Assembly: GCA_026023565.1 (NCBI GenBank)
Contig: JAPETS010000005.1
Span: 868,001-932,000 of the forward strand
Direction: 5' to 3'
DNA from: Cirrosporium novae-zelandiae
Taxonomy: Eukaryota
Length of the DNA stretch: 64,000 nt
Shown: positions 9,316-56,072 of the stretch, in pieces
Position numbering within the stretch: the stretch's first letter is position 1
How the letters are laid out: every line of letters begins with the position of its first letter
The notes under the pieces: generated by a model
Told to the model about the DNA's origin: nothing
What the model saw: only the letters and a program-made list of their open reading frames with translations
Database searches by the model: none
Program-made: the position numbers and the translations under genes

Positions 9316-10553
9316 ATGAGAGAGAGAGAGAAAAAAAGGGAAAAACTAGCTTTTCAGTTTAATATATTACTTACTTGCAGGTCCTAAAATTGGGGCACAG
9401 TTAACGCTACGGCAACGTACAAGTAAAGCTTCCAGAGTTGCTACTGTACATATATCTACGCTATCCGTATTACCAATCCTTGACACACACAGATAAGTCT
9501 GCTGCCAAAGCAAAAAAAAAAAATACGACGTTGTTGTTGTTGTTGTCGTTCGTAATAGCAGTGTAGTAACAAATCCACCATAAGCAAATGTATAGTACAG
9601 TATATTTAACATGTATATGAGGTTGCGAATTTGATATCATAAGTACTATAAAGCTAAACATCAGGGGGGCCGGGAGGGTGAAGGATTCCTCCTTTGAAGA
9701 AGCAGGGGATTGTGACTTGTTTTTTTTTCATAATTATTACCTGTTCAGGAGGGGATGAAGTATTGTAGTTGTAGTTGTAGTGGTACTGAGTAGTTGTCAG
9801 GTTCAGAATGACCTCTGATTTTCGCCTTAATTACTGTAAGAAGGTCGACTACACTCACTCCTTCGTGTGGGGGTTTCTTGTCACAGGTATTATTGTATAC
9901 TGACTAGGCTTAAGGAGATGGATCCTTAGAAAACATCGATATTGCGTATCATATCTGTAGAGTATTGTAGGCGTAATAGTAGAGTGGGGTATTTGCCGTT
10001 CTTAATCCATCGTGTTGCCTACGCCTACCTGTAAAAGCTCATAGACCTTAGATGTAAAAGGATGTACCATTAGGTATTCTCGCCTAAGCCGGGAAGTAAA
10101 AGCCTATCTATCTAAAAGCTTATCTTAAGACTAAGAATAATCATAGCGTTTAGCCCCCAACACAACCACACACACACACACACACATTCTCTCTCTCTCT
10201 AGGGAAGTACCCGGGCCTTAAAATTCCACCAAGTCCTGAATACAATGTTGGGAAGGAAAATTGGAAATAGAATAATGGCTATGCAAGGGACTAAGGGGCT
10301 AAGGGATGCGAGTGATGGATGGTTATATGTGAGGTGAATAGTGTTTTATAGGGATGGATCTGTTAGTGGTGTTAGCTTGGCTGGATGGGCGAGGTAAAGG
10401 ACTGGAAGGTACCTAATTAAGTATATTTTCCATAACATGTACGCAAAGTACAAGTACAAAATCCCTGTAAAAAAAACAAAACCCCGTTTTTCGCCTAACC
10501 GCTCGCTCACTCACTGCAATCACTTAAAATCAACCACCAAAGCAAAAAAAAAA

Positions 10554-10672
10554 ACATACAACAGCCGGTATTCGCTGGTCGTCACCGACCCAACTACTAA
10601 CCGGCCGGTCTCAAGTTTATGTATGGCAGAGCGGACGGGATGCCCAGTTCTCTTGAGCCTGTGGTCGTATGT
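10554..10672 (-). rRNA. Dispersed 5S rRNA gene
   Basis: 119 nt, ACATACGACCACAGG...GCATCCCGTCCGCTCTGCCAT...TTAGTAGTTGGGTCGGTGACGACCAGCGAATACCGGCTGTTGTATGT. The ends are complementary, a T-run Pol III terminator follows, and an AT-rich element lies about -25 to -30 upstream. Confidence 0.97.
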
Positions 10673-25282: not shown

Positions 25283-27669
25283 ATGCCTCTCTCCCCTCTC
25301 CTCTGGAGTTGGCTCGCCGTAATCCCAGCCTTAATCACAAAAAATAAACACAGACGCCCAGACTTTTCCATGCCTTCATGCCACGGGGTCGACATCGAAG
25401 AGCTCTCAATACAACAATTGGGCCAACATCTTCAAGCTGGGACATTCACTTCCAGGGAGCTAACCGAGTGCTATCTCAAGAGAATCCACCAGCTTAATCC
25501 ATATACTAGGTTCGTGTTTGAGTCTCAAATACGGTGTAGCATGGCAGCTACCTGAGCTTGAACATATTCAATTGTTGACTCTTGAATCCTGGCAACCAGA
25601 ACGGTCATTGAGATGAATCCCGACGCATTAGAAATAGCGGATGCGATGGACGAAGAAAGAGAGCAGGGAAAGGTTAGGGGGGCTATCCACGGAATACCGT
25701 TTCTGGTTAAGGATGTATGTATCCTAGTTATGCTTCTGGGGTTTTATGATATCCCTTGGATCTCCTTATACCAAGAAATTATGGTTCTATATACCCCTTT
25801 CTAATTGGTATTGTAGAACATGGCTACGAAAGACAAAATGCAGACGACTGCCGGTTCCTCAGGTATACTTCTGTCTTTAACGAGTGTTTTATCTGTCTGT
25901 CTAGAGACCTATTCTCATATCATATATACACTTTTGTTGCTGCCCTTACTGATGATAATCATTATTTAGTGCTTATTGGAACGACAGTTTCAGAAGATGC
26001 TCACATCGTTATGCTTTTACGAGCAGCAGGTGCTGTTCTTTTAGGGCATGCTAATCTCTCCGAATGGGCTTCGATGAGAGCGAGCTACTAGTATTTTACC
26101 GACTCCCTTATCCTACACGAGCTTTTGTATAAATCTTTTGATACATCATACTGACAGGTATAAGCTCAGAAGGTTATTCTTCGCGCGGAGGGCAATGCCG
26201 GAATCCATATAATCTTGCCCACCATCCTGGTGGGTCTAGCTGTGGAAGTGCCGGTGCCGTAGCCACCAATATGTGTGCATTTAGTTTGGGAACCGAGACG
26301 GACGGAAGCGTGAGCTTTCTACACTTCCACAACAAACAATCAAACAACCAGGCTTATTCATTTTCTGCAGGTCATATTTCCTGCTGATAGAAATGGGATT
26401 GTAGGAATTAAAGCTACAGTGGGCTCGATTTCCTGCGACGGTATCATTCCTGAGTCTAGTAGCCTTGACGCCGTTGGAACGTTTGGAAGGAGGGTGGTAG
26501 ATGCAGCAATTGCTTTGGATGTGATTTATGGTAATGGACAGTTTGCCGTGTTCATCAATCTTATGCTAATAGAGATTGTAACTCAAGATGAGAAAGTAAG
26601 CCATCGTGAGCGGCCTTCCTCAAAATCCATTATATCAGCAGTAAGTAGCAGAGAAGCACTCAATGGGGCCACGTTCGGTTTGCCGTGGAAAAGAGTTTGG
26701 GAGACCGCAAGCAAATCCCATAAACACAAATTAGAATACGACATATTAAAGATGGTGGTAACTCGCATCAGGGAGGCAGGTGCAGAAGTAATCGAAAGCG
26801 TAGATTTCCCAAGCGCCGATGAAATCATACCCCCAGCAGGCTGGGATTGGTAAGACCCCCCTCCTTTATTTACATAGCAGAGAGCTTTTAGCTAATTGAT
26901 GCTTCTTGCGATAGGGACTTCGAGACTAGAAAGGGCCATCCAGAACACTCCGAATTCACAGTTGTCAAAACCGAATTTTATAACGGCTTGAAGACCTATC
27001 TAGCAGGGTTGTCCACCAATCCCCATCATATCACGAGCCTAGAAGACATCATGAGGTATAATGTAGATCACACAACCCACGAAGGTGGCATTCCGGGTAC
27101 GCATCCTGCATGGCCCACCGGTCAGGACAACTTCGAGAAGAGCATGAAGTCCAGGGGTGTTGAAGACGAAACATATCGGAAAGCCTTGGAGTATATTCGG
27201 CGGAAAGCGAGAGAGGAGGGAATCGATACGGCAATGTCTTCAGAGGGAAGAGAGCTCGATGGACTACTGGTGCCGATTCAGGCTGAAGACGGTGTTGCTG
27301 TCCAGGTGGCTGCGAAAGCTGGTATTTTCATACTACCTTGCGAAAGAGAGACTATGGCTTAGTTTATCGTCCCTGAAAATATTCTGACTGCTCACAGGGT
27401 ATCCGATGATCACCATTCCAGTTGGTGTTAATCATAATGGTGAGTGCCTCCGTCCCCCAGATCGAAACTGTTTCTAGCAGAAGCAGGCTAATTGCTCTTC
27501 CTCGTGATGATTAGGGGTTCCTTTTGGACTAGGAATCATGCAGTCAGCGTGGAAGGAACGGGAATTGGTAAAATACAGTTCCGCTATCGAGGATTTGATT
27601 TCTGGAAGAAAGAAACCGAATTTTCTCAATCCCGATGCGAAGAATTACATGTATGTTGGAGTTCGGTGA
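25283..27669 (+). CDS. Amidase signature family enzyme (multi-exon)
   Basis: IHGIPFLVKD (catalytic Lys), GAVLLGHANLSEWA, PGGSSCGSA, LGTETDGS, GYPMITIPVG, VPFGLG; about 9 introns. Confidence 0.92.
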
Positions 27670-30894: not shown

Positions 30895-33800
30895 TTACTC
30901 TCTTTTAGCGACGCCGATATCGATTCCAAATCGTCTACTATCAATTTGCTCTCCATTACCGAGGACTTTGAATGGCCACCACCCTAGGGTTATCAAATGG
31001 CCATCCCAAATTCCGACCAAATCCTCGCTTTTCACGGCTTCAGGAGAAGACGCCTCCAGCGTCGCTCTTGCAATCCAAACCATCTCACTTCCGGCCAATA
31101 AGCTAACCTGCGCACCAATCGAGTTCGGTGCCTTTGTAATAATAGCTTTTGTATCTACTCCAAGAGCCACAACCGCAACACAGATTAAGATCGTTCCCAG
31201 AAGTGCTTGAATGGCCACTGTTGCCCAAAAGGTTTGAATCACACGAGAGGATGTGGCGTTGATGGTAGCAGTAATGTTGGATTGTGGTTCGGGGTCGACG
31301 TATGGTCGAGCAAGGTTGATCATTTGAGAAGCGCAGTGTTGAATTACCTTACCGCCTGCTTTAGCTAGGACTGGGGGAGAGAGGAAGTCTGCCATGTTCA
31401 AGGTTGGATTCTCGGATACCATGACATGAAAGATAGGGTCCATTTCATCGAGATTCCAGAGAGCTGCAAAACCATAATGGAGACTAGTCCAATTGCGGAC
31501 TGTGTCTTTATACTCGATTTTCTCAATATGTGTAATCGAGGTAGGTTCATAGGACGTAATTGCTAGGGGTAGTGTTTTTGGAACCCCAAATTCAATTCTT
31601 ATCGGTCTCTGCACTGTTATGTTGACTTCTACAGCTCTAAAGTCAAGCATACAGGAGAAACTTGAAACGTTAGTCACATTCACATAAGAGTTATAAAGCC
31701 ACGGAGGCGATCCACTTGAATTATCAATAACATTGGTTTCGATAACTTCAGCGAGAACAAAATCTGTCACGTTAATTTTTGCATCTGATTCCTGCACATC
31801 CGATCCTATGTCGAAATCCACAGAGCCCTCGTTCCTAAACCAGTGAATTTGGCCATCCGATGATGTCCCATTAAACATATCGGTCAAAGGAGCATTTGGA
31901 CAATCTGTCATATTGTTCTTGCAAAAGGCATACGGCACCTCGTCACTGTATCCGCCACCGCCCATTTTCCACGCATAGTCGTTCGTATCAAAAGTTTGGC
32001 AAATCGGAATTGCCTGAACAGCAGGAATCCGAAGATGGGCCTTGGCTCCAGATGACAAAATTTCGTTACTCTGCTGATCTGGAATAACATCGGAGAAATT
32101 GCTGAAAATAAGACCATCCATCAATCCCACAGGGCCGTAAGCCGAGTACATTTCTGATTGAGCAAACTGCACCATAACCCCAGCCTTTAACCGTAGCAGC
32201 AAATCTTGTGAGTTGGTAAGGTTTCGGGTTGCTAAGCGGTAAGTATCCAAATTATTTGTCAGACTGATGTCCGTCATTATTTCCGTTTGTATGTTTATAG
32301 GCCTTAGTTCGTCTACGAAGAGCGCTGCCGCGAGGATCTTTGTAGCCGGTAAGAGAAATATGAGAACTGAACTTGCAAAGAGGAGGGGGCTTCGTGCAGT
32401 CTTTAGGGAGTGATAACCGATAGTGAAGACCGAATGATTTATCGGATTGAACTTGTGTCCCGGAGCAGAAGACCGCTGCATGTTGATATAGGGCTGGATA
32501 CCTTGAACAGCGCTATCAGTGGCATTTGTTGCGTATCCTATAATTACGAGTAAAGTCGACGGGATATATAGCCAAGCAAAGGATTCTACTTCGTCATTCA
32601 GCCCAAATCCATTAGTTTCTACGTTTTTCTTCCACAAAGCTCCAAGGGTAGCTATCATAGCTGCTAAAGAGACCAGAAGAGCAATTCGCGAAGCCAAGAG
32701 GAGGATAAAAGGGCTGTAGGCCTTTGCCCGCGTTTCTTTGGCTTGGACATCTGAGAGATATTTTGGTAATTCCTAACATCCAATAACATAAATATGAGCC
32801 GCAGTGTTTGAATAGATCCGGTCAAAAGGCAATCGTGGGTGTTACTCACAGTGGATTCTGCTAAAGGATGTCGAACAAGAATAGCCGTTCCATTAGGTCC
32901 CCGTGCTGTTTTTACCAGCGCCCCTCTTAGATGTCTTCTGAGACTTTTCTCATCTAGCTCGCCTGTTTGCACTAAAGCCATCTCAAGGGCGGTACTTCTA
33001 GCTGTTGTTAAAGCAGTAGCTTCGATTGTTCCAGGATCAGATTGCAAGTCGGTCTTCGGCCGGAGAAAGGTTCCACAAAGAAGAGTCACAATAGCGAGAG
33101 AAATGAAAAGCCCCTGCAAAGTTCGGAGTGATGGCTGCCTAGTTCTCAGTACTTGGGTGGATGTGATTAACCATCCCTTGATATTGGAATCATTAGTGTT
33201 CACGCGATACTCCTTGTTGACAATTTGAGCCAGAAGCTTTTGCAACGTAGTTGCAGTATCGCTCGCTAGTATGGTGATATTTGAGGCGTACTCCTGCAAT
33301 CGGGTTTCATCCCCTCTTGATAGTAGAGAAAAAAAGGGATCTAAATCAAGGCCGCCCCAACGATTAACCAATCGCGGTACTCCAGGGTAATAGTTATTGT
33401 ACATTGTTGAATCGGGAGCATAGTAATTGACAAGTGTATGTGATAGTGGATGTTCCAGAAAGGCCTCCACTGGGAATAGTGTACCGTCGTTGAAAAATAT
33501 AGGACCAGTGTTACTCAGAGACAAATATTTATTAATCTTAAGGACGATAGATTCTGGATTCTTGATTTCGATATTCTGAGTTGAGTTTGCCCTGTCACTG
33601 ATACTGATGATACTAGCAGTTTGGGGATCCACCTTCACTTGCAAATCTTGCATTCGGAAACCAATCTTGCAAATCAAGCCCGAAATTTCCAAACTAGATT
33701 TGTTCAAGTCAGGCAGAATCCCATCAGGGGGCTGGTAAACAGCCATGGTTAATCGGAGGTCTGATTCAGCGTTCATGCCACAGTTGCTTGATGGGGTACA

Positions 33801-35244
33801 GTACTCTCCACCACAATTCCCGCCATTCTTGATCACCTCATCGGTACATGGTTGATAATAACATGATTTCTGGGGGCATTTCCACTGGCCACAGGTTGTG
33901 TAATTCATCCAAGCAGTCAAGTTGGATTGAACGAGCGCGGCTTGTGGATAGTCTCTTTGAAATATATTACAATTGGCTTTTGCGAGGTCGGTCTCATTTG
34001 GACGAAGTGAAACTAGAATAAGAGGACCATCGTAATCTGAGCCGACTTTCTCCGCGCTTGTTTTATGGTAAGTGACAGGATCACAGGTAACGTCTGTTGT
34101 AAATGCCCCCACAACGGCAGTGATGGTATGATTTGTATTATCATCTGCAGTAGCTTTTTCAAAATCGGCACGGGAAAGATTGAAGGATTCTAGTGCATAC
34201 TCTGAGGTGGTCCAATGTGGCATCGCGTAGTCCATGGCATCGACGCCCATAAAAGCTAGGAAGGAGTTCGAATCAAACATTGTTTCATTCCCAGTCAAAG
34301 AATCATTGACAACCAACTTTGAAGTCTGAATAAAGGATTGCTTCGAGGAAACAGATCGTAGTTGAGGGTCCAGAAAAAATAAGTAATTAGCAAATGGTGT
34401 TGATGCAACGCATAAGAACGACCCAAGAAATCCCAAAAAAATACCATAGTGACGTCTTCGCAAAGATCGATAAAGACTCATGATAGCCATGCTATCGATA
34501 TAATTGACATCAACCAAAGCATCTTCTGCCTTGGCCCAACAACCCCCTGCCATTATCGACCAAGGACCAACTTTCTTCAGGTCTCTGAGAATCATCTCCC
34601 ACAAAAACGCTAAGAATACGGCGATAATTGTTGGAAGATATCGGGCCAAGTTATAAATTGAGTTAGGGGCATGAAACCCGTGAAACTTTTGATCGAAATG
34701 ATCTAATATCTCAAGGACAACGATTAGGGCAATAAAGACGGCACAAAGAGTCAGAGTAGCTGGTAGACGAAGCATCGGAGGGACCCATTCTTTATACTTG
34801 TGAGATTGATGGCCAATTTCAAAATCACTCGCAGATATGCTCTTCCTGTGCATTAACAAAGATTGAAATGGCCCATCTGATCTTGAATTGACTGCTTCTT
34901 CTTTGAGGATATTTACTTGCGTTTGGGATTCACTTCCTACTGAGGACAAAGGTAATAATGGTATTTCCTCATACCGTTGTCCATCGGTTGTTGAATGACC
35001 CTTGCTACCGGTATCATGTATGCCTGCGGCGGACCTAGTGGACGTCTCTCCTAGTTACCCACTTGAGTAACATGGTTATAATAAAGCTAGCCAAACACTT
35101 ACTGATTAATTCCGGTTCTGATCTGGAAATATTTGCGGCATCCTCCTGTTTCTCCCGATGTGACGTATCAAAGATCGAGATACCATTGGCAAGCTCTCTT
35201 GAATGATTGTTGCTATGAGCTGACAGACGGAATCGTCCATCCAT
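30895..35244 (-). CDS. Large fungal multi-pass membrane protein, DUF3433-like (two internal repeats, 3 exons)
   Basis: Two copies of the module YLPTIIAV..W..DLKKVGPW / YIPSTLLV..DSAVQGIQPY, each followed by a glycosylated luminal region and a TM-(D/A)P.(T/S)I motif. Ends RRFGIDIG. Confidence 0.75.
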
Positions 35245-37267
35245 AACGGAAAATTGAAAATAAGAAACAGCAATTCATATATTTAGGTAAAAACATTAAT
35301 ATGAACACAATCAGTGGTTAAGCAATTCCGGAAAACCTACAAAGAATATAATGGGACTATATATGGAGGGTAACTCAAGATGAAACTAAATCCTACGCCA
35401 AGTGATGAGCTGAGCCTCGCATAAAGATTGTTGTACTGTACTGTTGAATCCTTGTTTGAATGAAGCATGGCAAACCCGCCTTCATTAGTGGGGTGTAGCG
35501 CCATCTTCTACTTTCTTCCACTAAGAACTTCTCAGACAGAGGATGGAAATGCGATGGAAAGGATGGAGCATTTCCTTCATCCAGCCGCCTACAAGTAGCA
35601 CAAGACTTCAAGATTAAGGTGGCTATGGCGGCCGCCAAGGTTGTACCAAGAATCATGTTGGCCTGTTTGAACTGTAGAGCCAACCGGGACTAGAATCCTT
35701 CATGTTGACAGTGGGTATCGTATCCAAGGCGGGGTTGGCTGGCGCCTTGAAGATATAATTCGAAAAAGGAAAGATCTGTTAACTAGTTAGAAAGTTAATA
35801 GGCATGAATAATTATTCCTTGCTTGTTTTCATATTAAAGATGTTAGGGATGAAGTGAAGATTAGCTACCGAGAATCTGTCTAAAGATCGGCGTAGTTATT
35901 ACATAATCAAGGCGTTTCTTACCTACCCCTAATTGATATTTCCGCTTGTCCCGCTACATTGGATAGCACTCCACGAAGAAGGAATTGCTTTAGTGACAGT
36001 ATAAAGGTGAAGCCCTGCTTCTGCCTGTTAGAGCTTACTTGCCTGGTCTTTGCAACGACCCAGGGGCAATATGATCTGTGCTTGAGAAATCATCAAAGTA
36101 ATGCTAGAATATTTCCCCTTGGGTTTCTTGAGGGGAGCTTTCGAAAGAAGAGGACTATCGAGAGGCAACCTTAGCAATATGGGGTTAGGATAAGCGGATA
36201 ATACTGACATTGTGAACCTTAGTATCCATGGCTTGAGTGGCAAGGATGCATGATTCTCCTGTGTTCCTTCAAGTGTCCCCCATTGTTCCAGTCCTGAGGT
36301 GCTCCCCAAAGGTCGACTAGTCTTCGTTTAAGTGTTCTTCCTATGTGAGAATAGGGGGACTGGGCCTTTTTAAGGCCAGCATAACAGTATGCAAGGTATG
36401 AATCGGACAACTCACATCCATGGTGGTTTCCTTTAACAACCCCTTCATCGGAGATGGTATGAAAAATGGTACTGAGTTGTTGTTTGCTGTGAAACAAAGA
36501 ATAAACAATTTTTGTGGTTATTGATAAAAGTTATGGATGGAAAAAGGAAAGAGAACAGATTCGATTCAAGAGATTCGCAGAGATTCAAATGCCCATATGG
36601 AATGGATTTCCGCCAACACTGATGCATTTAACATGATATCTCATAACTTACAGTTATGGTATCTCCTATCTAGAACATCGGGTAGTGATCATGACATTAG
36701 GTAATGTGACTTTGAATCTTATCTTGCCCCAATGGTAAATGTCTTAGTACAGACTTTATCCATGCCTCTCCTCAAGGCGCCTTGTGATTCTCACTCCGCA
36801 TAAGACTTTTCTAACCCTGTACCGGCATACTTCATGTTATCGGAGTGCTAGAATACTGAAGTTGCGGACGCATTAGAACATTACTGCTACTATAGTGGTG
36901 TCTGCTGTGATAGAACAAGCATATCCTAAAGGAAAGCTCAGAGAGAGATGGGGTGGATCTTGCAACACTGTCCGAAATGAATTTCTTGTTGTTAATAGGA
37001 GAAAGTTGAGGAATCTAACCTTTGGGCGCTTGTTAACTGTCAGGATCAGAACGCGTGACAGGGACAATATGAAGAAGAATGGGAGGAGGAAGGGGGGGGG
37101 GGGATGGATAGAGTAAAAGAGTACTGTCAATAGAACTATCCTAATACCAATCAGAACCACCCGTCCACTCACCGCATTACCTCCCAACCATCCAACAAGA
37201 ATCCCCCCAACGCCCCCAATGCCTCTCAGCCACCCTTTAAATATTAGATTAACTTTAGAATTATTCA

Positions 37268-37532
37268 ACGAGAGACCACCATGGCTCAGTGGTAAACCGT
37301 TCAGTACTCCCGGCGCATTTCAGAGTCAGGACAAAGGAGTACTGCGACCGACGACAACCACCCCCCGAGTTCGAATCCGACTGTCGACATCCACAACATG
37401 ACCGATGGGGGATTAAATGGTAAGGGAGGTCGAAGAACAACCCTCTCAGGATGAGCAGGTCTGAGGTGGGTGGGTTTTCATAAGATATCACAACGTTAGG
37501 GTTGGGGGTATCTAAACTCTTTGGTGTTTTTT
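37268..37532 (+). ncRNA. Putative Pol III-transcribed structured ncRNA (or tRNA-derived SINE), identity unknown
   Basis: A box TGGCTCAGTGG (37282-37292), B box GAGTTCGAATCC (37367-37378), upstream TTTAAATA (~37235), T6 terminator at 37527-37532 and four hairpins. No tRNA cloverleaf can be built. Confidence 0.55.
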
Positions 37533-39565
37533 ACTTTTGTTTTTTTTTATGTGTATATTGTTTACGTGATAAAGATTTTTGTAAATAGCTTCTAGATTCA
37601 CGTGTTTTTAACATCTGCTGACTTTCTTTGGACTGAGCTTTTCTTCTACCATCGTATTTGCGCCTTTTATTCTACATGTCATACATTGTACTGTATACAG
37701 TAAAAAGTGAATCAGTTGTTTGTCTTTTCCATCTTCTTTTCCTTGAGGGTGTTCTAATGTACAGGTGATAATTTCTCCTTCATTTTCTCCGTCACTAGTG
37801 CCTTTTTCTCATAACAATACACCTCAAAGTGCAAAACGCCATAAACAAGCTTATCTGAGATCTACAAGCTTTCTGAGTAATAACCCTCGGGGCGTTTAAA
37901 TCACAAAGCGAGCAAGCTCAGCTGAGATTTAGTAGCTTAACAATCAATGCTATTACACCTTTATATTGTCTTATATCGATACTCGTTTCCTTGCTTTGTT
38001 GTAATGTAACCATCTAGCGACATGTTTATTTCTATGGACTTCATATTTCTTTTCTAGTATCAGAAATTTCTGCCCATCTCGAACTACAAAAACCTTGAGT
38101 CGAAAACATCCATCAATTAGTTTGATCCCTCTCCCCAGGTGCTCCCCCCTAAACAGGTATCTCATAAAAACTTTGAGCGGTCTCAAATGCAAGGAGATTG
38201 CCTATTCTGAGGAAGGATCGATATGAGCTTCTCTTCAAAGGGAACCCTTCGGGTGACATCCCTTTGTCATAACCTTCCATAGTTCCAGATGCTCCAAAGC
38301 CAATAGCAAGGCAATCCTTGAGCAGATGACATTCTTCGGCGAAGGATATTCAACGCAGCATTCAATCTATGGTGACGTACAAATGCTGAACTATGGTCGG
38401 TTGAAGCTAGAGTAGGATCCCGTTGTTGCTAAGATTGGGGAGCGGTTTGAACAAAAAAATCGGAAGGAGGGTTCAACTGGCGTGGTTTGGATGCGTAGGA
38501 AGGAGTTTTCTATTGGCGTTCGTAATGGGCCCCGGATATTTTGAGGGTGTGGGCGATCCACTCTTCTTCCTCTAGGGAGCTAGTGATTTGTGGGATTGGG
38601 TTCATGGTTATGTCAGGATCGCAGCCTTAATCATGAATCCATGTTATATAACCAAAGATTGGGCTTGTAGAATCGCAATAAATTTATATGGTGCTGATTG
38701 TGTGCCAAGCAGGAATTAAAAAAAAAATTAGTAGCTAGCTTAGTAGTATATAGACATCGTTGTAGTGTGTACATTGATGTAGGAAGTATAAGGGGATGAT
38801 GTAAACTTAGCAATGTCGACAAGGCTTTCGCATGCTTCTAGGGGGGACAGGATTTTCAAATAAATATTCGTGACAGATAGCATGGCGATATCGAGCTAAC
38901 ATCATGATCAAGCCTAGTTACGTTGAAATCCGAATATTGGGGGTTCTGAAATAAGGAGTCTCTGACACTGGCTGCGAATATAAATAAGCAAAGTCAGCAA
39001 ACACCTCCTTTCCTGGCACCTGCGGCTCTTGCTAAAAATAGGGGTTTCTTATTAATTGTCCCTCTGGGCAAATATAAGCAAGCGAGGACAAGCAGGCACC
39101 TTTCTCGTTCTTTGTTATCTGGTGAGCCTAGTAGCATAGTTTGCTTGTTGGTTGTACTGGACAGTTGAATTGACTGAACAAATTGGGCACCGTGCAGGAG
39201 GTCACTTGGTACCTTGTTTGGAGCTTTTGATTTTTTTTGATTTTTTGCTGAATAAGTGGACTTCTTTCTAAGGACTGTAGGCTATTTGAATTCAGTGATG
39301 ATTTTAAGGGGCATTGCGGGTTATAGATTAATGACTTGTGCGGATAAAGGTATGGGAAACCGGTAGGTAAACAAAAAAAAGACAACTCACCTAGATCTAA
39401 AAATTGGAATTGGTGCATAATAATATATTGATCATGATTCTGATCCCAGCCAACCCAGCCAATCTCCCATTGACAGAAAACATATCTTTGACACATGTTG
39501 GATTGAGTGAAAGAGGGATGCCATTAGATATGCATATAAACATTGGTACAGTCTGTCCATATCTG

Positions 39566-54651: not shown

Positions 54652-55255
54652 CAATCACCAAGACCTCACTTACCTTAGGTTTCCTGCCCTAGATACTATA
54701 ACCCGTGTGCCATATCTATCTTCTAGATAAAGGCCTCTGCTGGTAAGCAAGTATTATCTATGGATATGGATATGTGAGGGGACTCCCTGGCTAGAGGGAG
54801 ATAGGGGGCGGGGGGGGGGTCATGGTCGGGGATGTTAGATATTATACTGAGTATGTGGGTTATGTTAGTATAGTTGCAAGGGAAGATCATCGGATTGAGG
54901 TTGGGCTTTAGGGTTTTAGGGTTTAGATGCCCTGGAGATGTTTCAATGGATATATCTATATATACGTACAGTACATTATATCATCACCAACCTACCTTTA
55001 TCCATTATTTCCCTTTCCCTTTCTTTCTCCGTTATACACCTAGGTAAATATGTCACCAATGCAGTCACTACAATACACTTCCCTTTTCTATTAGAAGGAA
55101 GGGCTGAGAAAAGGAAAGCCAATAACCACTTTCATGTATCTATTTAGGTACTATACTATACCTAAGTAAATAAATTAAAAGGACGCGTAAGTTAAAAGGG
55201 GGCGTGAGATATATAAGGATATATCCCATATATAACCTAGCCGTGCTGTTAACCT

Positions 55256-55300
55256 CTTTCTTTTCTTTTCTTTTCTTTTCTTTTCTTTTCTTTTCTTTTT
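55256..55300. repeat. (TTTTC)n simple repeat
   Basis: About 8 pentamer units in an AT-rich intergenic region. Confidence 0.85.
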
Positions 55301-56072
55301 TTTTCCATTCCTTTTTTTTTTTCCTTTTTTTGGTCTTTAATAACAAATGGTAATTAACACCATATATCTATAATGGCATTACCATCCATTAGACCATTCA
55401 ACTATCAGCAATTATCCCTCCCCCCCTTTTTTTTTCCTTTTTTTTTTCCTTTTTCCTTTTCCCTTGTTATTAAAGCCCATTTACTCTACTCTTTCGTTTC
55501 TAATTATCACATACATGCCGTCTTACAATTATAACAATCATACGAAAAATTAATTTAATTTCTCTCACCAGAATATATATAGCACATAACACGTACAGCA
55601 CATAACACGTATAACAAGTACAACAAGGGATTGTACTATACAAGAAGTATATTACAGAACTCCCTAGAACTATATCCTCTATCCCCCCTTTCCCCCCACA
55701 CCCACACACACATAAAGCGAGTCCCTCCCTTCCTTCTTAGTTCCCTCCCTTCCCTCCCACAAGTAAGTCCAAAGTTCAAAAAAATTCCAGTTTTTCCTTT
55801 CCCTTTTTCCTTTTCCTTCTAAATTTTTAGAAAGTTTTTTTATCCATTCAAAAAAAAAAGAAAAAAAAAATAGTAGCAAATATCAATCTTATAAAAGAGA
55901 GAGGGCTTCCAAAATCAAGGGTTCTTTATTAATGAATTGGTAGTTATTATTATTAATTTCTAAAAAGAAGAAAAAAAAAACTCAATTTAAAATATCTCGT
56001 CATCCTATCAAAGGGGTCACACCTATTTATTATATGGAGGGGGTTGGAACCCTGGAGTAGAGTAACTGTTAC

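Follow-up and report, generated by a model that had tools for sequence, protein, structure and literature searches.

A dispersed multicopy RNA polymerase III-type element with conserved RNA structure in the genome of Cirrosporium novae-zelandiae

A 64-kb window of the genome of the fungus Cirrosporium novae-zelandiae (contig JAPETS010000005.1, positions 868,001 to 932,000 of the forward strand, here G000:C74:868001-932000, in the 31.4-Mb, 128-contig assembly GCA_026023565.1) contains, near position 37267 of the window, an element with the anatomy of an RNA polymerase III (Pol III) gene, which belongs to a family dispersed through the genome. A preliminary description of this DNA had presented it as one gene and had proposed a count of genome copies; that count, made with a DNA search, returned at least 14 matches at no fewer than 13 loci on 11 contigs, with 70 to 87% identity over the matched parts. 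A second genome search with a divergent copy (L013) gave 18 matches, all within 11 of the 13 known loci, and a pattern search for the 3' domain gave nine, all known, with none in a reversed control. Comparison of these sequences leads us to regard the family as real, a multicopy element of Pol III type that is uncatalogued and whose RNA structure is conserved. Conservation of the promoter, terminator and stems across the copies upholds the earlier label of a structured Pol III-type RNA gene outside any Rfam family, except that the element is a 13-locus family and not a single gene. The copies are also what gives the features their significance, as in the window sequence alone the boxes and the fold do not exceed chance: an A and B box pair of such a pattern occurs in 12 of 60 simulated 64-kb windows, and the 271-nt window strand folds no better than shuffled sequence (z = +0.46, with 131 of 200 shuffles folding equally well).

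Full-length copies make up 11 of the 13, with the first run of five or more T at position 237 to 476. The tree of copies is star-like, and the only supported pair is L010 and L013. These two and L011 have a middle region lengthened by duplications of the B-box segment and by short tandem repeats, giving copies of 333 to 476 nt, and a long extra stem is possible in L010 and L013, with one compensatory difference between the two.

Conservation among the 13 copies jumps at the column that corresponds to window position 37267, and we take this position as the predicted start because of that jump and because its spacing from a TATA-like element upstream is the same as in L093, a locus with U6-like genes. 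Upstream identity between family copies is 0.58 in the interval from -35 to 0 versus 0.46 to 0.50 beyond it; the same step is seen in 24 5S rRNA loci (0.55 versus 0.46 to 0.47) and is almost absent from 18 transfer RNA (tRNA) loci (0.48 versus 0.44 to 0.47). The U6-like gene of L093 has at -33 a 14-mer that is identical to the window copy at 13 of 14 positions, and the best match to this 14-mer lies at -33 to -36 in 12 of the 13 copies. An identity of at least 10/14 is reached in 8 of 13 copies; among controls it occurs in one of the 273 flank windows, one of the 24 5S loci and one of the 18 tRNA loci. Inside the element, 12 copies retain an intact A box and all 13 have a B box that a relaxed pattern recognises, which is the anatomy of a type 2 Pol III promoter. 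At the other end, a run of five or six T follows immediately 3' of the last hairpin in 10 of the 11 full copies, as an oligo-T terminator would. A C breaks this run in the window copy, and the first T6 lies 9 nt farther. The 40 nt behind all 11 ends contain 18 to 31 T and 3 to 12 A, with T-rich repeats that resemble those found behind 5S genes. Both boxes, with 74 nt between them and hence within the 30 to 95 nt looked for in a type 2 gene, the TATA-like element and the T6/T4/T9 runs are all present where the preliminary description had placed them.

The 3' domain supports a conserved RNA structure. A hand-adjusted model of 28 pairs in 11 copies has 96% of its 294 cells paired; seven of the 28 pairs show double-sided changes (11 cells), a result obtained in 0 of 500 shuffles, and registers slid along the alignment are at most 55% paired. 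In a pairing-retention test on 25 pairs, which excluded three pairs of an ambiguously aligned helix, 18 of 25 variant pair types still pair, compared with 4.7, 9.3 and 11.7 expected when transitions are weighted 1, 4 and 10 (P = 0.007 under the heaviest weighting). Most of the double changes are private to single copies (L004, L007, L009, L011 and L013), which, together with the star-like tree, points to selection on separate copies. RNAalifold, run on eight copies, recovered hairpins 1, 3 and 4. The top helix of hairpin 3 is paired in 97% of its cells, with four of seven pairs changed on both sides, while its simple base shows one double change, and in its loop the A-T-G-A-G and A-G positions are invariant in all 11 copies. 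The lower helix of hairpin 4 is paired in 95% of cells and has one pair double-changed in four copies. For hairpin 1 (eight copies) the values are 94% of cells and one double change in nine pairs; its loop is nearly invariant among 10 aligned copies and is replaced in L010, L011 and L013, the L010/L013 version being different and shorter. The two parts of hairpin 2 lie in a poorly aligned region and are paired in 71% and 48% of cells. All four hairpins drawn in the preliminary description can be found in the sequence, and the comparison separates them: the first is conserved, the third and fourth covary, and the second, as drawn, is unsupported. A possible pseudoknot between the hairpin-3 loop and a downstream UUCAU has both sides invariant and is thus uninformative on pairing.

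Conservation is unevenly distributed along the element. The loops of hairpins 1 and 3 are among the best-kept stretches and the middle is variable, with 3 to 8 invariant columns per 25 versus 14 to 18 in the first 75 columns; the invariant columns are clustered, forming 89 runs where 128 would be expected (0 of 10,000).

The element does not correspond to any RNA family that we searched for. The window copy matches no Rfam family at gathering level, and the four matches that appear at E values up to 10 are weak (12 to 19 bits) and far below the cut-offs; at E up to 5 there is no match among the 12 other copies. This agrees with the earlier statement that the element could not be matched to 5S, U6, SRP (signal recognition particle) or RNase P/MRP motifs, and normal SRP, MRP, U6, 5S and 5.8S genes are located elsewhere in the genome, the RNase MRP match (L091) being unusually long at 485 nt. 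The preliminary description saw no acceptor stem or anticodon arm, and indeed the element has no tRNA cloverleaf; neither ARAGORN nor Rfam calls a tRNA at any of the 13 loci. Models of self-cleaving ribozymes in Rfam (hammerhead, HDV-like, twister, pistol and hatchet) match none of the copies. An H/ACA small nucleolar RNA (snoRNA) was considered and rejected. The H-box pattern ANANNA noticed earlier is indeed present in 8 of 11 full copies and missing in three, and it is paired in the base of hairpin 3, hence not single-stranded; all 11 copies end in AAC followed by T, with no ACA end. In addition, no antisense stretch longer than 10 nt was found to any of 23 RNAs compared, among them U6, 5S, SRP, MRP and 18 tRNAs.

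On balance, we think it probable, by a modest degree of confidence, that the family encodes, in genes that could each be transcribed on their own, a lineage-restricted multicopy Pol III RNA that acts as a protein-binding scaffold, analogous to the RUF70 and RUF6 RNAs discussed below. TFIIIC would bind the A and B boxes and TFIIIB the upstream TATA-like element, transcription would run from about 37267 to the first T run, and the product would be an unprocessed structured RNA of about 250 to 260 nt with an oligo-U end. For the window copy we predict a 3' end near 37530 and a transcript of about 262 nt. Such an RNA could work as a scaffold or decoy for protein in a small ribonucleoprotein (RNP), with the conserved loops of hairpins 1 and 3 as putative binding sites and the oligo-U end available to a La-type protein. 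We prefer this role to that of a base-pairing guide because the stems change while the loops stay, the middle takes more than 200 extra bases and no conserved antisense stretch to the RNAs compared was found. Copies may be born and die like dispersed 5S genes, with several kept for dosage. The paralogues already yield a structure model and a covariance model for the family.

Several observations weigh against this interpretation. Transcription by Pol III is predicted from sequence, and the scaffold role is suggested by the location of the conservation and by analogy. The L093 upstream motif was selected after its likeness had been noticed, and the alignment from which the 28-pair model was derived, with manual adjustment, overlapped the one used to test it, which favours the model in the pair counts. 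The eight ordinary-length copies share 65 to 89% identity and are far less uniform than the 5S genes, which reach 0.95 across their first 35 nt. Among individual copies, L005 is 3'-truncated before hairpin 3, L012 is decayed (still scoring 27 bits with model R1), L006 has its A box broken by a 7-nt insertion, and in the window copy part of hairpin 4 and the first terminator are gone; given these two losses, the window copy itself may be ageing. Finally, our scans, which are weak, found no homologue outside this genome that would speak for long-term conservation.

A bolder version, which we hold only tentatively and rather doubt, is that the family represents a new class of abundant fungal Pol III RNP RNA, a counterpart of the vault, Y, 7SK or RUF6 RNAs. 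It would have about ten active copies, bind a dedicated protein via the invariant hairpin-3 loop and spread as a whole promoter-to-terminator cassette, with relatives in other Pezizomycotina that current models miss. The Pol III set of filamentous ascomycetes is usually described as tRNA, 5S, U6, SRP and RNase P RNAs and a few microRNA-like RNA (milRNA) loci, and we know of no vault-, Y-, 7SK- or RUF6-type RNA from these fungi. If the favoured reading is true, this set would gain a new RNA, encoded at 13 loci that have a promoter of their own and a structure upheld by covariation.

Of the candidates named in the preliminary description, a new noncoding RNA (ncRNA) fares best, although as a family of 13 loci. 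The H/ACA proposal fails, and milRNA and C/D snoRNA are unlikely; the real rival, lacking the hallmarks of its class, is a short interspersed element (SINE). According to this alternative, which we regard as a serious possibility short of being probable, the family is an old low-copy SINE-like retroelement whose degenerate tRNA-type head serves as promoter and whose hairpins 3 and 4 are the signal for the reverse transcriptase of a long interspersed element (LINE), so that the structure was selected in several source copies for mobility and not for the host. Much of the family fits this description: dispersed copies of SINE size with unrelated flanks, an internal Pol III promoter with A and B boxes and no tRNA fold, short-repeat insertions in the middle, decayed copies and a star-like tree. 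Fungal SINEs can be low copy in the data that we consulted (PMC5063351), and a domesticated SINE would look much like this family. The genome also holds 31 reverse-transcriptase matches, most with in-frame stops, and the tail of a partner element may be eroded past detection.

Other observations speak against a SINE. No A tail was found behind the 11 full-copy ends, where the longest A run within 40 nt is 1 to 3, and no 5'-truncated copy or 3'-only match was seen among the 13 loci. No target-site duplication was seen in the 11 full copies, although old duplications could have decayed; the longest exact repeat between the two flanks is shorter than 6 nt in three copies, 6 to 7 nt in seven and 9 nt in one. 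The 3' model found no match in 11 reverse-transcriptase loci, whose sequence reached only 1.5 kb past the domain. Furthermore, a SINE leaves the kept upstream element and terminator unexplained. The window copy and L002 share 29 of 31 nt upstream of the predicted transcript, and L002 and L006 share 80 nt 3' of the terminator at 75% identity; a retroposed Pol III transcript would carry neither the upstream element nor the downstream flank. Because these two pairs share sequence outside the predicted transcript, the comparison points to an origin of at least some copies by DNA-level copying or conversion. As regards a tRNA-derived head, the longest word shared with a tRNA is 13 nt (L007 with the tRNA L019), and at most 9 nt for L002, in a comparison that covered 18 nuclear tRNA loci of 62 genome matches. 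If the family were a SINE all the same, it would be an unusual one, without duplications or tail and with its upstream promoter kept, and would bear on how Pol III genes spread. No clear signature of repeat-induced point mutation was found in the copies: C-to-T and G-to-A account for 42 of 102 minority changes, and CpA shows no clear excess (12 changes at 28 CA sites, 19 at 37 CC sites). Among the reverse-transcriptase matches, the in-frame stops are mainly TAA, as expected after repeat-induced point mutation, and one locus (L070) has an open frame of 1080 codons.

A box C/D snoRNA with a Pol III leader, of the snR52 type, is improbable. A 180-nt leader with the boxes would be removed, leaving 70 nt of RNA bounded by a C-like box, in hairpin 3, and a D box that immediately precedes the terminator. 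This would account for a CUGA 2 nt before the T run and an AGGAUGA about 65 nt upstream, each in 9 of 11 full copies, and the pertinent part of PMC5356446 describes yeast SNR52 and RPR1 as carrying their boxes in a 5' leader. The difficulties are found in the boxes themselves and in the supposed leader. The first three bases of the C-like box are paired in a covarying helix, the first of them being double-changed in L011, and the would-be guide before the D box varies between copies and is paired in hairpin 4. The hairpin-1 loop of the leader is conserved as well as the 3' part, and none of the Rfam snoRNA matches is above chance. The C box consensus is RUGAUGA, and none of the 11 copies has a canonical C box.

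It is slightly less probable still that the copies are chromatin landmarks bound by TFIIIC and Pol III, like the yeast ETC sites, ZOD1 and tRNA-gene barriers, with any RNA a by-product. Such loci are known in yeast, as far as the same source goes (PMC5356446), and here the promoter boxes are among the best-kept parts and the copies are intergenic, beside unrelated genes. A DNA-level site, however, would not need the 90 nt 3' of the B box to equal the boxes in conservation and to form covarying RNA stems that include G-U pairs, as they do.

We consider a milRNA precursor, in which Dicer would cut one of the hairpins, very improbable, even if the Neurospora milR-1 to milR-4 are transcribed by Pol III and have T terminators and TATA-like elements, pri-milR-1 being about 170 nt (PMC3547838), as the best ungapped 21-nt duplex has only 15 to 17 pairs in all 11 copies and the combination of variable stems and invariant loops is opposite to what a small-RNA precursor would show. 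The least credible of all is a highly diverged nuclear RNase P RNA: its size and promoter would fit and no normal gene was located in the genome, by a search too shallow to establish its absence (RF00009, with 15 of 1845 candidates scored), but a sensitive Rfam scan of all 13 copies gave no match, and the strand needed for the long-range P4 helix covaries with a local partner. Three other loci, chosen by a short RNase P motif, are not RNase P.

The features of the window copy are collected in Table 1.

Table 1 Predicted features of the element in the window (window coordinates)
Feature	Position	Strand	Remarks
Upstream TATA-like element, core TTTAAATA at 37236-37243	37232..37245	+	Lies at about -35 to -22 relative to the putative start; candidate TFIIIB site
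Putative transcription start at the first A of AACGAGAG, a pyrimidine-purine step	37267	+	15 nt 5' of the A box; inferred
A box TGGCTCAGTGG	37282..37292	+	Intact in 12/13 copies; split by 7 inserted nt in L006
Hairpin 1, 9-bp stem with conserved 25-nt loop at 37311-37335	37302..37344	+	94% of cells paired; one double change (L007)
Variable A/C-rich middle region including the B box	37345..37431	+	Insertions of about 80 to 220 nt tolerated in L010, L011 and L013
B box GAGTTCGAATCC	37367..37378	+	Recognisable in 13/13 copies (relaxed pattern); duplicated in L011
Hairpin 3, irregular and long; top stem 37444-37450/37460-37466; loop ATGAGCAGG at 37451-37459	37432..37479	+	Covariation
Hairpin 4, about 10 nt of the upper stem missing relative to 9 other copies	37483..37513	+	Lower helix 95% of cells paired
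Family terminator position (T5-T6 in 10/11 full copies), here interrupted by C	37518..37522	+	
T6/T4/T9 cluster: 37527-32, 37535-38, 37540-48	37527..37548	+	Terminator use inferred

The interval from 35.1 to 39.5 kb of the window contains no convincing gene, in line with its earlier reading as gene free, and is flanked by END3 and two open reading frames (ORFs) of the DUF3433 family. The last exon of END3 is 100% identical to a Cirrosporium novae-zelandiae protein, and its next matches are at most 65% identical; the genus, together with Xylobotryum, has been described as an isolated lineage (PMC6712537, in the part consulted). The two DUF3433 ORFs are adjacent on the minus strand (30895-34853; 587 and 729 codons, 5 bp apart), each with its own domain, and probably belong to a single gene interrupted by an intron or a break. 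The window also has a lone 5S rRNA gene on the minus strand (10553-10672), with a TATA-like element near -30, and the genome as a whole has 30 dispersed 5S matches, a pattern as in filamentous ascomycetes. The 1-kb stretch at 55001-56000, with low GC content (0.32) and strong GC skew (-0.40), is unlike the remainder of the window. Around the 12 other loci, the 28 ORF pieces within 1 to 1.5 kb of flank belong to unrelated families (short-chain dehydrogenase, CHCH, luciferase-like monooxygenase, MFS, WD40, ribosomal S13/S18 and DUF3433) or to none, so no common gene neighbourhood was found at that range.

Two other regions of the genome deserve mention. The locus L093 (G000:C63:774556-775075, minus strand) contains a tandem of two different U6-like genes separated by about 420 bp; in the downstream gene a short spliceosomal intron appears to precede the ACAGAGA box directly, and each gene has a reverse-orientation B-box-like sequence shortly upstream, with no tRNA gene in the locus. 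A link between the element and this reverse B box was suggested by a likeness seen by eye and was dropped, as nhmmer gives no match at E up to 10. Elsewhere, G000:C35 and G000:C47 each carry a tRNA match at 26090-26189 and a 5S match at 81409-81528, a coincidence that suggests a duplicated contig in the assembly.

Beyond this genome, the strict 3'-domain pattern has no match in the metagenome collection, and a looser one has 112; model R1, applied to 80 of these, gives 10.8 bits at best (E 2.1), and screening all 112 for the 7-bp stem with a B box left none, and we take them as chance. Viral contigs gave three chance matches to the loose pattern and none to the 5' pattern. These scans use exact patterns on collections poor in fungal DNA and do not establish absence. 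We found no description of the family in the literature on fungal SINEs, on multicopy or novel Pol III RNAs or on the genus, which was covered mostly in open-access form without supplements. The family looks uncatalogued, short of a motif-by-motif comparison with the 15 fungal motifs of PMC5640933.

Within the genome itself, the SRP RNA gene (L014, RF01502, at C75) has the same layout as the family, with an AT-rich element at about -35, an A box at about +10, a B box at about +80 and a T run, in about 267 nt. Derivation of the family from SRP RNA was rejected, as the one local likeness (26 columns near helix 8) is not significant, with 4 to 93 of 100 shuffles scoring as high across 11 copies.

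Among transposable elements, the fungal tRNA-derived SINEs such as AfuSINE2 of Aspergillus fumigatus resemble the family, with 140 to 493 bp, A and B boxes, low copy number and a body unrelated to tRNA (PMC5063351). Those SINEs were defined by target-site duplications of 4 to 14 bp, one of them also by a LINE-like 3' end; we see neither feature in our family, which, unlike AfuSINE2-type SINEs, conserves an upstream TATA-like element and a T terminator. The Helenus terminal-repeat retrotransposons in miniature (TRIMs), reported from basidiomycetes, have tRNA-like long terminal repeats (LTRs), with A and B boxes and no tRNA fold, that occur in pairs or as solo LTRs with 5-bp duplications (PMC10886601, as far as its accessible text goes), whereas the copies described here are single, end in T runs and have no abutting duplication.

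Two known RNA families come closer. The RUF6 or GC-rich ncRNA family of Plasmodium falciparum comprises some 15 dispersed copies that carry internal A and B boxes yet make no tRNA (PMC6974570, PMC9262227, in the portions consulted); those genes adjoin and regulate var genes, whereas the neighbours here have no common protein family and the copies no Rfam match, so the likeness is one of analogy only. The RUF70 RNA of Yarrowia lipolytica is a Pol III transcript from 13 dispersed copies, with compensatory changes among paralogues and a role given as unknown in the parts of the two reports consulted (PMC2566860, PMC5014426). Both families are fungal, with 13 dispersed copies and compensatory changes between paralogues, and neither, as far as those sources and our scans go, has been found in other ascomycetes. 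RUF70 differs in being about 70 nt long, without an internal promoter and always behind tRNA-Trp(CCA), whereas our family is about 255 nt long, brings A and B boxes of its own and lacks a tRNA gene within the 13 loci compared; the expression of RUF70 comes from northern blots, and the likeness between the two families is one of description and not of sequence.

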